NCBI GenBank assembly: GCA_043798985.1
Contig: JAZDOE010000018.1
Location: 8,057 to 72,056, forward strand
Direction of reading: 5' to 3'
DNA from: Candidatus Falkowbacteria bacterium
GTDB taxonomy: Bacteria; Patescibacteriota; Patescibacteriia; UBA11705; JACRDX01
Length of the DNA stretch: 64,000 nucleotides
Shown: positions 253-63,769 of the stretch, in pieces
Position numbering within the stretch: the stretch's first letter is position 1
Layout of the letters: each line of letters starts with the position of its first letter
Translations under genes and position numbers: made by a program
Notes under the pieces: generated by a model
The model's input: the letters and a program-made list of their open reading frames with translations, nothing else
The model's database searches: none
What the model was told of the DNA's origin: nothing

Positions 253-333
253 GGGGGGTTTGTATAGTGGTAGTACGGAGGTCTCCACCCCACTGCTCGC
301 GAGCAGCGGGGTCCAAAACCTCTATCGCAGGTT
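253..333 (+). other. Truncated tRNA-Trp-like fragment (tRNA positions ~1-55) carrying a 26-28 nt GC-rich palindromic insertion in the anticodon loop
   Basis: 253-286 is identical to 589-622 of the intact tRNA-Trp (acceptor 5' half, D-arm, anticodon stem 5', CTCC of the loop). 287-312 is the palindrome ACCCCACTGCTCG|CGAGCAGCGGGGT (12 of 13 positions pair). 315-333 matches AAAACCTCTAGCGCGGGTT of the tRNA with 2 substitutions. Homology ends inside the T-loop. Confidence 0.6.
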
Positions 334-335
334 AT

Positions 336-581
336 ATGTTTTACGTATATTTATTAACAGACGAGAATCAAAAAATTTATATAGGATATACAGAAAACTT
401 GCCACGGCGGATAGCCGAACATTCTGCGTGCAAGGTTTATACGACGAGAAGGATGGCGAGACCTAAGTTGTACTATCATGAAGCGTATTCAGATAAAGAA
501 TCTGCAAGAAATAGAGAAAAAGGATTGAAACAGTTTGGCTCTGCATATGTTGGATTATTAAAGAGAATTGGGTTAAAATGA
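336..581 (+). CDS. Small GIY-YIG nuclease-superfamily protein (YhbQ/UPF0213-like), 81 aa
   Basis: MFYVYLLTDENQKIYIGYTENLPRRIAEH contains the GIY...YIG motif and the Arg/Glu spacing of YhbQ-like proteins. The ORF-track start at 231 overlaps the tRNA-like fragment, so the ATG at 336 is preferred. Confidence 0.65.
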   Translation: MFYVYLLTDENQKIYIGYTENLPRRIAEHSACKVYTTRRMARPKLYYHEAYSDKESARNREKGLKQFGSAYVGLLKRIGLK

Positions 582-588
582 AAATCGC

Positions 589-662
589 GGGGGGTTTGTA
601 TAGTGGTAGTACGGAGGTCTCCAAAACCTCTAGCGCGGGTTCGATTCCTGCACCCCCTGCCA
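589..662 (+). tRNA. trnW: tRNA-Trp (anticodon CCA)
   Basis: Manual cloverleaf. Acceptor GGGGGGT/ACCCCCT. D-stem GTAT/GTAC with loop AGTGGTA. Anticodon stem GAGGT/ACCTC with loop CTCCAAA. T-stem GCGGG/CCTGC with loop TTCGATT. Discriminator G followed by an encoded CCA. Confidence 0.85.
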
Positions 663-40907: not shown

Positions 40908-41960
40908 ATGCGTATGGACACTGCGATTTTTGATTATAATTTGCCTAAAAATTTAATCGCGCAACAGCCGGCCAAACAACGAGATCGTTCGCAGCTTTTT
41001 ATTTATAATCGCGCAAACGACGAAATTGAACACAAAAAGTTTTTTGAGCTGATTGATTATTTAAAAAAGGGCGATATATTAGTTTTAAATAACACAAAAG
41101 TATTGCCAGCGCGTCTTTTTGGCAAAAAAGAGCAGACTGGTGGCAATGTTGAGGTTTTGTTGCTTAGACAACTTACGGCCAGGATTTGGGAATGCTTATT
41201 GCGTGTTCGTGGAAATAAAAAAAATACATTTTTGGTTTTTCCAAAAAATTTATCCGCGCAGATTTTAAAACCGCACACGAATGAAACATGGCAAGTTCAG
41301 TTTGATCTGCCGGAAAATGATTTTAAATTGTATTTGCAGAAATATGGCGCAATGCCTTTGCCGCCGTACATTAAATCAAATTCCCCCGAAGGGGCCCCTT
41401 CGGGGCAGGCATCAATTTTGAAAAAACAGTACCAGACGATTTTTGCCAAATATGATGGTTCAGCTGCGGCTCCAACAGCCGGATTGCACTTTACCAAAGA
41501 ACTTTTGTCTAAAATTCGACAAAAAGGTGTGGCAATAAAATATATCACCCTGCACGTTGGCTTAGGCACGTTTGCGCCGGTTCGCGAGCAAACGATTGAA
41601 CAGCACAAAATGCACTCGGAAGTTTATAAAATGAGCCAGCCAACATATAAAACTCTTCTTGCCGCAAAAAAACAAGGCCAGCGAATAATTGCGGTCGGCA
41701 CCACAGTCGTTAGGACGCTGGAAACGGTTTTTAATGCCAGCCGACCGCGATTATCCGGCGAAACTGACATTTTTATTTATCCGGGCTATGACTTTAAAAT
41801 GGTTGACGCGATGATAACGAATTTTCATTTGCCAAAATCAACGCTACTAATGTTGCTCGCGGCATTTGTGGGCAGAGAAAAATTAATGGAACTTTATAAA
41901 ATCGCGATAGAAAAACAATATAGATTTTACAGTTTTGGAGATGCGATGTTCATTGAGTAA
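40908..41960 (+). CDS. queA: S-adenosylmethionine:tRNA ribosyltransferase-isomerase
   Basis: FDYNLPKNLIAQQPA, PLPPYI, AAPTAGLHFT. Carries an in-frame palindromic insert at 41384-41405 (see findings). Confidence 0.85.
   Translation: MRMDTAIFDYNLPKNLIAQQPAKQRDRSQLFIYNRANDEIEHKKFFELIDYLKKGDILVLNNTKVLPARLFGKKEQTGGNVEVLLLRQLTARIWECLLRVRGNKKNTFLVFPKNLSAQILKPHTNETWQVQFDLPENDFKLYLQKYGAMPLPPYIKSNSPEGAPSGQASILKKQYQTIFAKYDGSAAAPTAGLHFTKELLSKIRQKGVAIKYITLHVGLGTFAPVREQTIEQHKMHSEVYKMSQPTYKTLLAAKKQGQRIIAVGTTVVRTLETVFNASRPRLSGETDIFIYPGYDFKMVDAMITNFHLPKSTLLMLLAAFVGREKLMELYKIAIEKQYRFYSFGDAMFIE
41384..41405. repeat. Perfect 22-nt GC-rich palindrome CCCCGAAGGGGCCCCTTCGGGG inside queA
   Basis: Read directly from the sequence. 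It encodes PEGAPSG, between the conserved PLPPYI and YQT motifs. Confidence 0.8.
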
Positions 41961-49319: not shown

Positions 49320-49394
49320 GCCGGGTTCGTCTAGTGGTTAGGACATTAGGTTCTCAACCTAAGAACACGGGTTCGATTCCCGTACCCGGTACCA
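49320..49394 (+). tRNA. trnE: tRNA-Glu (anticodon CTC)
   Basis: Manual cloverleaf. Acceptor GCCGGGT/ACCCGGT. D-stem GTCT/GGAC. Anticodon stem TTAGG/CCTAA with loop TTCTCAA. T-arm ACGGG-TTCGATT-CCCGT. Discriminator A followed by an encoded CCA. Confidence 0.85.
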
Positions 49395-49403
49395 AATGGG
49401 TTC

Positions 49404-49434
49404 TCGCCCTTCGGGCGACCACCCGCAGGGTGGG
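49404..49434 (+). other. Two tandem GC-rich hairpins immediately 3' of tRNA-Glu
   Basis: TCGCCC-TTC-GGGCGA (49404-49418) and CCACCC-GCA-GGGTGG (49419-49433). The same GC-hairpin style as the intragenic palindromes. Confidence 0.5.
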
Positions 49435-49460
49435 ACACCCCTTGGCGGTACCAAAAATAC

Positions 49461-57068: not shown

Positions 57069-58670
57069 ATGAAAACAAATAAGTTGGTTGCACTTATTAT
57101 TTTGGATGGCTGGGGCATTGCTCCGCCCAACGATGGAAACGCGATTGCTCTCGCGAAAACTCCATATTTTGATCAGCTGATTAGCCGCTATCCAACGCGC
57201 ACGCTTTTGGCGTCTGGCGAGGCCGTTGGTTTGTCTTGGGGCGAAATGGGAAATTCAGAAGTCGGGCACCTTAATCTTGGCACCGGCAGAATTTTTTACC
57301 AAAATTTGCCACGCATTGACAAAGCAATTAGCGACAAAAGTTTTTTTGAAAATCCGCAATTTTTAGGCGCGATTGAACACGTGAAACAAACAAATGGCGA
57401 TTTGCATTTGCTCGGAATTTTAAGCGAAGGCCGCGTGCATGGCATGTTGTCTCATCTTTACGCACTGCTGGATCTTTGTAAAAAAGAACATTTTAAAAAA
57501 GTTTACATTCACGGATTTCTTGACGGAAGAGACACGATTTACAATAGTGGCGCGGATTTTGTAAAAGAATTACAAGAAAAAATTGACGAGATTAAAGTTG
57601 GCGAAATCGCCAGTTTGTGCGGCCGGTTTTACGCGATGGATCGGGATAGACACTGGGAAAGAACAGAAAAAGCTTATCGCGCGATTATTGAAGGCAAAAG
57701 TGAAGCATACGCGAAAAACGCAGTCAGCGCGATTGACGCGTCTTACCACAAAAAAGTTTTTGACGAAGAATTTGTGCCGGTTGTTATCGGTTCCGCGCAA
57801 AAGCCCGTAGCAACAATTAAAAATGGCGATTCTGTAATATTGTTTAACTATCGTTCTGATCGCGCGAGACAATTGGCAGAAGCATTAACAAACCCTAAAT
57901 TTGACAAATTTGAGCGCGTCCCTATGGCAGACATTTTCGTTGTCAGCATGACAGAATACGAAACCCCGAAGGGGTCCCCTTCGGGGACCAATAATAACAT
58001 CCATGTCGCGTTTCCCAAAGAACCTGTAAAAACATGTTTGGCAAAAACACTTAGTGAAAACAAAATAAAACAATTGCACGTCGCGGAAACGGAAAAATAC
58101 GCGCATGTCACTTTTTTCTTTAACGGCGGCAAGGAGGAGCCGTATCCAATGGAATCACGAATTATGATCCCATCGCCGCGCGTTTCATCCTACGCGGAAA
58201 TTCCGGAAATGTCTGCAAAAAAAATCAGCGACGCGCTTGAGCAGGAAATTTTGAAAGAAAATATAAATTTTATTGTTGTCAACTATGCAAATCCGGATAT
58301 GGTTGGACACACCGGCGACTTAAAAGCGGTTATAAAAGCGGTTGAAACCACTGATAAACAATTGGAACGCGTTATAAATTTAATTTTATCAAAAAAAGGC
58401 ATCGCGCTTATTGTTGCTGACCATGGCAATGCCGAGGAAATGATAAATTTGCAAACAGGCGAAATTGATAAAGAGCACAGCACAAATCCAGTTCCGTTTA
58501 TTGTTATCGGAGAAGAATTTGAAGGAAAATTATTGGAAACAGAAGAAGCAATTGGTCGTGATTTGAGTTTACTGCGACCGTCCGGTATTCTTAGCGACTT
58601 GGCGCCGACGATTCTGAAACTTTTGAACATTAAACGTCCGAAAGAAATGAGCGGGCAAGACTTATTGTAA
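57069..58670 (+). CDS. gpmI: 2,3-bisphosphoglycerate-independent phosphoglycerate mutase
   Basis: LIILDGWGIAPP, GNSEVGHLNLGTGR, ADHGNAE. Contains the palindromic insert at 57964-57986. Confidence 0.85.
   Translation: MKTNKLVALIILDGWGIAPPNDGNAIALAKTPYFDQLISRYPTRTLLASGEAVGLSWGEMGNSEVGHLNLGTGRIFYQNLPRIDKAISDKSFFENPQFLGAIEHVKQTNGDLHLLGILSEGRVHGMLSHLYALLDLCKKEHFKKVYIHGFLDGRDTIYNSGADFVKELQEKIDEIKVGEIASLCGRFYAMDRDRHWERTEKAYRAIIEGKSEAYAKNAVSAIDASYHKKVFDEEFVPVVIGSAQKPVATIKNGDSVILFNYRSDRARQLAEALTNPKFDKFERVPMADIFVVSMTEYETPKGSPSGTNNNIHVAFPKEPVKTCLAKTLSENKIKQLHVAETEKYAHVTFFFNGGKEEPYPMESRIMIPSPRVSSYAEIPEMSAKKISDALEQEILKENINFIVVNYANPDMVGHTGDLKAVIKAVETTDKQLERVINLILSKKGIALIVADHGNAEEMINLQTGEIDKEHSTNPVPFIVIGEEFEGKLLETEEAIGRDLSLLRPSGILSDLAPTILKLLNIKRPKEMSGQDLL
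57964..57986. repeat. GC-rich palindrome CCCCGAAGGGG-T-CCCCTTCGGGG inside gpmI
   Basis: Identical to the queA element apart from a central T. It encodes PKGSPSG. Confidence 0.8.
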
Positions 58671-62557: not shown

Positions 62558-63769
62558 ATGGCTATTGATATTTTTGGATACGAAAAAGACAAAATTGATA
62601 TTATCATGTTTAACATGGCAACGTTTTATGATTGGGACAGGGGAGTGGTTAATCGGAATTACAATGTAATGAACGAGCTGGCAAAAAATCCGCGCGTAAA
62701 CCGGATAATCGGCGTTGATTTTCTGCCAATCAAACTTAGGCAGGCAACAGGACATTATTTTAAAAATCTTTTATTAGAAATAAAAACCGCGGAAATGATT
62801 TATGGCGACCTTACCAGCGCTTGTTATCGCAAAACCGACAAAATCTACGCGTACACAACAATTGATTCAATTTTTTCTTTTAAAATCGTCGCGCGAGAAT
62901 TGCGCAGAATAGAAAAAATTCTGAATTTGCGCAACATTGTTTTTTGGTCATATAATCCGATGTTTGTTGAATTTATAGGTCGGTTGAACGAACGGCTTAT
63001 TGTTTTTGACACTGTGGATAACTGGATAGAGCACTCAATTTATCCGAAATTGCTGTCGCGAAAGCGCTTGTGCGCAAATTACAAAATAATTAGCGAAAAA
63101 GCTGACTTGATATTTACAGTGTCAGAAGAATTATTGGATTTTTATAAAGAAATGGGACGGAAAAAGGATATGACTTGGATACCAAATGGCGTTGATTTCG
63201 CGCATTTTAATGATTCTGAAAAATTGGCAAAAGAAAACGAACTGTCCAAAATTGATAAAAAAATAATTGGCTATCTTGGCACAATTGAGAATCGGTTAAA
63301 TTTTGATTTGTTGACCAAAATCGCGGATAACAATAAGGACAAAGTCCTTGTTTTGGTCGGACCAGTTTGGCCGTCTGTGAAAAGCAAGGTTGCGGCGCTC
63401 GCGAAGCGAAAAAATGTGAAAATTATCGGCCGCGTCAAATATAATGACGCGCCGAGCTATATTAGCCGTTTTGACGCGGCCATTATTCCGCATCAATCAA
63501 CCGGTTTGGTAAAATCAATGAATCCAATGAAACTTTACGATTATCTTGCCTGCGGCAAGCCGATTATTACAACATCTGTCCCGGGCGCTGAAATGTTTAA
63601 AGAACAGATTTATATTTCAAAAAATGATTCTGAATTTTTACAAAATATAGCGCGCGCGATGACAGAAGATTCTTTGGAAAAGACGGCCGCGCGTCGCGCG
63701 GCCGTGAAGCCGCATTCATGGTCATCGCGCGTCTCCCAAATGACCGATCTGGTTTTTAAAAAATTATGA
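62558..63769 (+). CDS. Glycosyltransferase family 1 (GT4)
   Basis: GT1 C-terminal domain (GYLGTIENRLNFDLL, VKSMNPMKLYDYLACGKPIITT). The ORF track gives 62534, which overlaps the intergenic motif. Confidence 0.6.
   Translation: MAIDIFGYEKDKIDIIMFNMATFYDWDRGVVNRNYNVMNELAKNPRVNRIIGVDFLPIKLRQATGHYFKNLLLEIKTAEMIYGDLTSACYRKTDKIYAYTTIDSIFSFKIVARELRRIEKILNLRNIVFWSYNPMFVEFIGRLNERLIVFDTVDNWIEHSIYPKLLSRKRLCANYKIISEKADLIFTVSEELLDFYKEMGRKKDMTWIPNGVDFAHFNDSEKLAKENELSKIDKKIIGYLGTIENRLNFDLLTKIADNNKDKVLVLVGPVWPSVKSKVAALAKRKNVKIIGRVKYNDAPSYISRFDAAIIPHQSTGLVKSMNPMKLYDYLACGKPIITTSVPGAEMFKEQIYISKNDSEFLQNIARAMTEDSLEKTAARRAAVKPHSWSSRVSQMTDLVFKKL

Follow-up and report, generated by a model that had tools for sequence, protein, structure and literature searches.

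An Ssn-like GIY-YIG nuclease gene and its candidate hairpin site at the tRNA-Trp gene of a Candidatus Falkowbacteria genome, and their recurrence across Patescibacteria

A nuclease gene between two copies of tRNA-Trp

We analyzed a 64-kb stretch of genomic DNA from Candidatus Falkowbacteria (hereafter the window, meaning the whole of that stretch), centering on a locus where a truncated copy of tRNA-Trp interrupted by a 24-nt palindrome, a gene encoding an 81-aa GIY-YIG protein and the intact tRNA-Trp gene follow one another, with the gene and both tRNA copies read on the plus strand. An earlier note on this DNA had described a duplication of the 5' part of the tRNA upstream of the complete gene, and this duplication is present and slightly longer than was claimed. 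Nucleotides 253–287 match positions 1–35 of the intact tRNA-Trp (589–623) without a mismatch, and the identity extends beyond the tRNA copy itself into three nucleotides of leader (CGC, 250–252 and 586–588), making 250–287 and 586–623 100% identical. This first portion of the truncated copy (250–287) ends in TCCA in the anticodon loop. There the palindrome, composed of the half-sites CCCCACTGCTCG and CGAGCAGCGGGG (as a whole CCCCACTGCTCGCGAGCAGCGGGG; hereafter PAL), occupies 288–311, a length of 24 nt with a single A.C mismatch, or 26 nt when A287 and T312 are counted; 11 of its 12 arm pairs are complementary. A direct repeat of TCCA (284–287 and 312–315) flanks it, and the extra DNA in the tRNA copy amounts to 28 nt, that is, the palindrome plus one copy of the duplicated TCCA. 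The anticodon-loop location given in the earlier note stands, whereas its dimensions (26–28 nt, placed after CTCC) are replaced by 24 nt between TCCA repeats.

Beyond the palindrome the tRNA homology resumes, as had also been recognized. The continuation at 312–333 consists of the duplicated TCCA followed by tRNA positions 36–53, aligning locally with positions 32–53 of tRNA-Trp with 2 mismatches, and it breaks off at 333, with the TT of the T-loop as its last bases. Only the 5' portion of the tRNA (positions 1–53) is duplicated, and the copy is devoid of the 3' strands of the T-arm and acceptor. ARAGORN and Rfam both detect the intact tRNA-Trp (CCA) at 589–662 (Rfam RF00005, 59.8 bits); applied to the upstream copy, a check that had been suggested from the outset, they call neither a tRNA nor an intron. 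Over nucleotides 1–1500, Rfam returned only the tRNA and spurious sub-threshold miRNA and sRNA matches, and no intron family.

The only open reading frame (ORF) between the tRNA repeats begins with an ATG at 336, its stop codon ends at 581, and the intact tRNA-Trp starts 7 nt downstream. Its 81-aa product, the only one of its kind in the window, matches the Pfam GIY-YIG profile PF01541 (E 9e-12, covering residues 1–66) and carries a conserved C-terminus, LKQFGSAYVGLLKR. The AlphaFold model (pLDDT 82) displays a GIY-YIG fold with one short C-terminal helix, with fold matches to UPF0213, Slx1 and I-TevI; profile searches against solved structures retrieved 1zg2 (E 2.3e-8) and 1ywl (E 8.5e-7), both UPF0213/YhbQ-like, in keeping with the YhbQ-type label that the gene had first been given. 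The protein comprises the catalytic domain only and has no separate DNA-binding domain of the I-TevI/Seg type. NCBIfam yielded only sub-threshold GIY-YIG matches (TIGR01453, 18.8 bits versus a cutoff of 56), PADLOC a marginal UzuA fragment only, and a tblastn search of plasmids for an annotated Ssn one weak match. PHROGs gave no match, nor did exact look-ups of the window GIY-YIG product, the window MurE product and the protein P0006.

Within nucleotides 1–900, the sole promoter-like site is a sigma-70-like sequence at 212–240 on the plus strand (TTGAAA-17-TATTAT with a TG), 12 nt before the truncated tRNA copy; the same scan revealed no such site before the intact tRNA-Trp. When 253–335 is folded as single-stranded DNA (ssDNA), PAL is the sole stable element (centroid -8.7 kcal/mol).

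Recurrence of the nuclease, palindrome and tRNA across Patescibacteria

Homologous loci (given L numbers here) were collected by protein similarity alone, blind to tRNAs. They cover at least 21 lineages with nucleases 45–72% identical to one another, a protein divergence that excludes cross-contaminated assemblies of one organism; besides the Candidatus Falkowbacteria of the window, the source names include Uhr-, Moran-, Collier- and Magasanikbacteria as well as Microgenomatia. At E ≤ 1e-12 the nuclease family comprises 5223 clusters (90% identity), and all source names given for it are Patescibacteria lineages. In 20 of 23 lineages, an intact tRNA-Trp begins 0–80 nt after the end of the nuclease gene; the others are L006–8, at tRNA-Cys, the outgroup L033, at tRNA-Gln, and a locus at a contig end. 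L001 has the order of the window, with glycosyltransferase, nuclease gene and tRNA-Trp in succession. A later test set of four further lineages conformed throughout, with L036, L038 and L044 at tRNA-Trp and L041–43 at tRNA-Cys. In L041–43 (1410–1960), a pseudo-tRNA-Cys (GCAA-PAL-CGATTC) precedes the nuclease gene, whose 3' end is overlapped by the intact tRNA-Cys, and a second PAL-bearing pseudo-tRNA-Cys follows; in L006–8, the intact tRNA-Cys stands upstream of both the pseudo-copy and the nuclease gene. More than 25 independent assemblies, produced by different projects, share the architecture of the window, which excludes an assembly artefact, a concern raised in the earlier note. Furthermore, over-called ORFs in a library of 1.84 billion proteins bear N-terminal extensions that translate a tRNA fragment plus PAL (e.g. 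SPPSVRERRDPKP and SPTPLLARSGAIP), and the architecture is therefore widespread. We state with high confidence that nuclease gene, hairpin and tRNA are associated.

Most nuclease loci carry palindromes of a single family with the consensus YCCCGCCnTTCGCGAAnGGCGGGR. Its TCGCGA centre is invariant in 22 of 22 variants, in a search that was seeded on TCGCGA and could not find copies without that centre. The arms change together, as exemplified by CTGCTCGCGAGCAG, CCGTTCGCGAACGG and CCTTTCGCGAAAGG: 6 of 10 arm pairs have changed on both sides, across 31 cells, a level reached by 0 of 500 shuffles. Since a copy entered the set only with 10 or more of its 12 positions symmetric, the share of paired cells is a circular measure, a reservation that does not extend to the double changes. 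Together, the invariant centre and the co-varying arms point to selection on the symmetry of PAL. Mismatches within the arms (5 T.G versus 8 C.A/A.C) give no hint as to which strand folds.

The palindromes are likewise tied to the nuclease in their placement. Across 237 kb, 52 of 53 copies lie within 600 nt of a nuclease gene, a zone that makes up 23.6% of the bases (P ~1e-31, with near-duplicate contigs entered separately in the count), and in the related loci they occur upstream of the gene, downstream of it, or on both sides. The TCGCGA type occurs once in the 64-kb window, 25 nt upstream of the ORF. The sole PAL-like copy away from a nuclease gene is CCTCGCTGTTCGCGAACAGCGGGG (L035 221–244), at the 3' end of a DUF2304 gene in the closest relative; the 6.5 kb read of this relative contain no nuclease gene.

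Junctions between PAL and the duplicate tRNA copies fall mostly at tRNA loop positions. In form A, the palindrome sits in the anticodon loop with TCCA on both sides (TCCA-PAL-TCCA, with the junction TCCA-PAL-TCCAAAACC), as in the window, L005, L009, L010, L017, L018 and L036. In form B (CCAA-PAL-CGATTCC), it stands in place of the stretch from the anticodon loop to the T-loop, both in L011, L013, L022–23 and L027–29 and in the tRNA-Cys copies of L006 and L041–43. Form C reads GGTAG-PAL-TCCAAAACC (L014, L030 and L038; L044 likewise, with the junction after GGTA), and D-loop insertions with 3-nt repeats occur in L015, L016 and L021. Forms A and B follow two protein subclades, which weakens an independent origin of each junction class, a scenario we had considered; inheritance combined with gene conversion is therefore the simpler account. 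In 10 of 12 lineages, the pseudo-copy is 94–100% identical to its own neighboring tRNA, with tRNAs differing by ~17% between lineages; divergent pseudo-copies are found in L005, L009 and L036. We read this pattern, on comparison of the copies, as an architecture probably inherited with the gene, with ongoing gene conversion from the adjacent tRNA and an occasional foreign origin.

Several loci bear traces of turnover. L027 and L028 differ by one 113-nt unit of pseudo-tRNA plus PAL, and tandem gene–tRNA units are duplicated in L015 (3897–4393) and L044 (1301–1500), the duplicated unit containing a pseudo-tRNA with PAL together with the nuclease gene or its 3' part. In L032, the gene contains in-frame stops and the centre of both palindromes is mutated, as read by eye from the sequence, so that gene and palindromes have apparently decayed together; L021 carries a frameshift.

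The closest available relative, a Falkowbacteria metagenome-assembled genome (L035; MurE 84% identical), has its tRNA-Trp between the same glycosyltransferase and murE genes, 1 nt different from that of the window, and the surroundings of this tRNA contain no nuclease gene, tRNA fragment or PAL. In the empty-site comparison suggested in the earlier note, the module is thus present in the window and absent beside the tRNA-Trp of L035, but the tRNA of L035 is inverted and an additional gene is inserted, hence no clean empty site is available. A site similar to that of the window (TTGAAT-16-TATACT with a TG) lies 13 nt upstream of the L035 tRNA-Trp; automatic alignment of the two promoter regions found no convincing homology, the geometry alone being common.

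At the outgroup locus L033 (3900–4340), a more distant GIY-YIG gene with another C-terminus (YFKTTKGKKTL...) lies directly upstream of tRNA-Gln, and an inverted repeat unlike PAL (CCCTGAGCTGAAC...GTTC.AGTTCAGGGC) stands before it. By this example, further families of small GIY-YIG proteins may pair with tRNA genes and hairpins of their own.

Likeness to Ssn nucleases and rival explanations

Taken as a whole, we favor reading the locus as a compact Ssn-like nuclease–hairpin module lodged in the tRNA-Trp gene, and we regard this as reasonably probable. On the sequence evidence, the upstream tRNA duplicate is not random debris but one instance of a module distributed across Patescibacteria. The Ssn nucleases, characterized only in 2025, are single-domain GIY-YIG proteins of CDD family cd10448, with SsnA having 94 aa (Chenal et al., Nat Commun 2025, PMC11893778). 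Their binding to a hairpin repeat (NTS/SRM) requires ssDNA and is limited to one strand, with the cut falling upstream of the repeat; such repeats flank 71% of Ssn homologue genes, and the authors liken the resulting repeat–gene–repeat layout to an insertion sequence (IS) (PMC11893778).

The Ssn/SRM system appears to be the closest known system to the locus, although we claim no membership in the Ssn clade. Both have a single-domain GIY-YIG protein of about 80–95 aa, and the 81-aa protein falls within the range of Ssn proteins (~80–100 aa) and, like them, has no extra domain. Both also have a gene flanked by gene-specific 20–50-nt hairpin repeats in an IS-like layout, as found in the window and related loci. 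The Neisseria NTS has the form CGTCA-TTCCCGCG-MAV-GCGGGAA-TCYRG (PMC11893778), and PAL resembles it in its arms (TCCCGC...GCGGGA) and its flanks (5' GTCA or TCCA and 3' TC), as in L016 (tGTCA-TCCCGCC...GGCGGGA-TCaat) and L009 (cTCCA-TCCCGCCC...GGGCGGGA-TCCaa). By this analogy, the protein would act on its hairpin as ssDNA in the manner of Ssn, a proposition toward which we lean only slightly. PAL differs from the SRM in being a 24-nt palindrome with a TCGCGA centre and a stem of 10–12 bp, in having few copies, confined to the locus and lodged inside tRNA duplicates that adjoin a working tRNA-Trp or tRNA-Cys, and in its hosts, which are Patescibacteria. The Ssn paper makes no mention of tRNA (PMC11893778), and a 2026 paper on tRNA introns in Patescibacteria mentions neither tRNA-Trp, pseudogenes nor palindromes. 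We found no description of a tRNA association in the literature searched, within which the tRNA anchoring of a nuclease–hairpin module thus appears undescribed.

Among solved structures, the UPF0213/YhbQ proteins (BH0048, EF2693) are the best sequence and fold match and are of similar size; they differ in sharing only ~30% identity by fold alignment, with LKQFGSAYVGLLKR falling outside the aligned stretch. We know of no hairpin or tRNA association described for them. At the sequence level, the UPF0213 match shows relatedness within the superfamily and would be compatible with Ssn membership. Other comparable systems include the REP/RAYT and IS200/IS605 hairpin elements, the tRNA-flanking palindromes of Neurospora mitochondria and the GC clusters of yeast mitochondria, in which short GC-rich palindromes, set in an AT-rich genome, go with a dedicated enzyme or with the flanks of tRNA genes, and in which hairpins are recognized as ssDNA. 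They differ from the present locus in employing HUH/Y1 transposases, or no known enzyme, and in palindromes that are dispersed genome-wide rather than placed in the pseudo-copies of one tRNA.

Several observations weigh against an Ssn-like module. No PAL matches the published SRM pattern, HGTCWYN(0-2)YYVSBRHN(0-5)WNVSBRGN(0-2)RNCYNB, because its stem is too long, and the NTS loop is asymmetric whereas PAL is palindromic through its centre; such full symmetry could reflect recognition of duplex DNA by a dimer. Dispersed copies in the hundreds, as in Neisseria, were not seen, there being one PAL in the 64 kb of the window and, in the other loci, none beyond 600 nt of a nuclease gene except at L035:221. 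The best solved relatives of the nuclease are UPF0213 proteins, the only such relatives in the Protein Data Bank (PDB). L001 and L002–4 have the gene upstream of tRNA-Trp with no PAL or tRNA fragment in the DNA available, and L035 offers no clean empty site. Promoter-like sites precede the pseudo-copy in only 6 of 15 loci, and a scan of viral contigs for a nuclease homologue and for the common PAL consensus recovered neither.

The sole matches to the SRM pattern lie at position 175 of L023, L024 and L025 (TGTCATCCCGGGCTTGACCCGGGATCCAT), ~3.8 kb upstream of the nuclease gene; judged by sequence, a canonical SRM may here coexist with PAL in one genome.

The alternative that survives best, though we consider it unlikely, is a free-standing homing endonuclease that cuts duplex tRNA-Trp genes lacking the gene, whereupon double-strand-break repair copies the gene in beside the tRNA; the truncated copy would then be a by-product of one-sided illegitimate repair, and the palindrome an operator or a protective insertion. 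Free-standing homing enzymes such as I-TevI and Seg combine the GIY-YIG fold with a tRNA-adjacent location and selfish presence/absence, and phage T4 carries such an enzyme, the GIY-YIG protein SegB, within its tRNA gene cluster. The shared fold, the universally conserved target gene and the pseudo-copies of L005, L009 and L036, whose divergence from the resident tRNA suggests foreign DNA, would all suit such an enzyme, and the full symmetry of the palindrome would be in keeping with a dimer acting on the duplex. Presence and absence among relatives would also fit, in that L035 has a tRNA-Trp without the nuclease gene, but that tRNA is inverted and another gene is inserted. Against homing, the protein has only 81 aa with no I-TevI/Seg-type DNA-binding domain, it lacks a phage context, with no PHROG match or viral homologue, and the intact tRNA beside the gene would stay a target. 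Homing also leaves unexplained a conserved 24-nt palindrome with co-varying arms that stands on both sides of the gene in several loci, a dedicated palindrome and tRNA pseudo-copies being features of the module here that are not known from I-TevI/Seg.

An element acting at the RNA level is, in our estimate, distinctly improbable. Here the tRNA-like leader and GC-rich hairpin would form a structured 5' UTR (untranslated region), processing signal or attenuator that governs how the nuclease mRNA is expressed and how the tRNA transcribed with it matures. The hairpin does lie between a likely promoter and the ORF, its arms co-vary, and the 5' half, being identical to the tRNA, could pair with the tRNA 3' half. 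However, some copies of PAL follow the tRNA or stand between gene and tRNA (L012, L016, L022–23, L027, L030, L034 and L041), and its TCGCGA centre, which an RNA loop would not need, is invariant in all scored copies. Moreover, folding of the whole segment 253–335 does not surpass that of shuffled sequences (z -0.82), the hairpin is not followed by a T-run, the scan of 1–900 yielded no terminator, and there is no Rfam match.

Incidental debris, that is, a decayed tRNA duplication struck by a mobile palindrome of unrelated origin, beside which the GIY-YIG gene happens to lie, or else an integrase scar or a degenerate intron, is scarcely credible even though GC-rich palindromic inserts occur elsewhere in the genome, some in-frame in genes: more than 20 lineages share the triad, its palindrome family and its junctions, PAL accompanies nuclease homologues in nearly every lineage sampled and is almost entirely confined to their neighborhood, a T-loop integration scar is contradicted by the lack of an integrase, by interposed DNA of only ~300 nt and by duplication of the 5' rather than the 3' part of the tRNA, and an intron by a copy without its 3' half, an insert of 28 nt that is too short to self-splice and the absence of any intron call. 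These were the three explanations put forward in the earlier note, and none of them fits; what points in the right direction is its suggestion of a single event or element behind both the GIY-YIG gene and the tRNA fragment.

The window contains further palindromic sequences. Three GC-rich perfect palindromes lie in-frame inside protein genes (41384–41405, 57964–57986 and 63683–63705); two have the core CCCCGAAGGGG-(C/T)-CCCCTTCGGGG and one ACGGCCGCGCGTCGCGCGGCCGT, unlike the TCGCGA type. The link once drawn between the tRNA-locus palindrome and the CCCC...GGGG palindromes of the window's protein genes therefore finds no sequence support, since the cores differ, although a common origin is still conceivable. 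The murE ORF (783–2150) includes a 48-nt GC-rich, partly palindromic in-frame insertion at 1412–1459 encoding HPRLPAGTAPLAEGFLG, which is absent from the relative's 84%-identical MurE (P0007); GC-rich in-gene inserts are thus real in this genome. Within conserved murE coding sequence, 1306–1392 forms an imperfect inverted repeat with ~20 nt per arm (GACGGCCGCGAAATTGACAAAG ... TTTTTTTGTCAATTTCGCGGCCG), which gave rise to spurious sub-threshold Rfam matches (mir-7131, WsnRNA46) and encodes a peptide that the relative conserves. At 49403–49448, just after tRNA-Glu (49320–49394), lies a double hairpin rich in GC (CGCCCTTCGGGCG + CCACCCGCAGGGTGG), with a very similar counterpart upstream of murE in L035 (3950–3985); judged by their similarity, the two seem to represent a further family of short repeats in these genomes.

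A proposed mechanism and what it would mean

In the Ssn-like module that we favor, the 24-nt PAL would be the cognate, SRM-like hairpin site of the 81-aa GIY-YIG nuclease, recognized as ssDNA and, by analogy with Ssn and NTS, cut a few nucleotides on its 5' side. The truncated tRNA would be a duplicate of the target tRNA gene with the hairpin in its loop, and since the hairpin sits in the loop, this duplicate could not make tRNA. The site at 212–240 is presumed to be the original tRNA-Trp promoter, now driving the truncated copy, the nuclease gene and the tRNA; as the truncated copy would keep the tRNA promoter, the nuclease gene would be transcribed from it. We infer from this arrangement that nuclease gene and tRNA are co-transcribed, in which case the functional tRNA would be released from the 3' end of the nuclease transcript.

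It is plausible that cuts at the hairpin stimulate recombination between the tRNA repeats. Such nuclease-stimulated recombination would keep the duplicate near-identical to the working gene and would also yield changes in the copy number of tandem units. Precise loss of the module, or its re-insertion by homologous recombination via the shared 5' half, would be possible in principle, which would amount to excision and re-entry.

A further step, which we regard as doubtful, would make the locus a self-propagating tRNA-gene 'capture' element that enters tRNA-Trp or tRNA-Cys via shared tRNA sequence, with the hairpin disabling the resident copy and leaving the host dependent on the linked intact tRNA. 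Were this so, the nuclease could not be lost without loss of an essential single-copy tRNA, and hairpin-specific ssDNA cuts would drive gene conversion and spread after DNA uptake. Minimal elements of this kind, mobile or addictive, with ~330 nt and one 81-aa protein, would form a new class acting on tRNA genes.

The locus reveals a large Patescibacteria branch of small GIY-YIG proteins, comprising thousands of clusters. Here the putative hairpin sites, rather than being scattered, lie within inactivated duplicates of a single essential tRNA gene and are coupled directly to its working copy. The architecture also accounts for recurrent mis-annotations in the candidate phyla radiation (CPR), in which extended ORFs such as '...SPPSVRERRDPKP...' are a translated tRNA fragment plus hairpin. 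New enzyme/site pairs may likewise be on offer for ssDNA tools. With ~400 nt and one protein, the locus would provide a minimal natural context for what hairpin-directed ssDNA cutting does, be it gene conversion, unit turnover, mobility or addiction.

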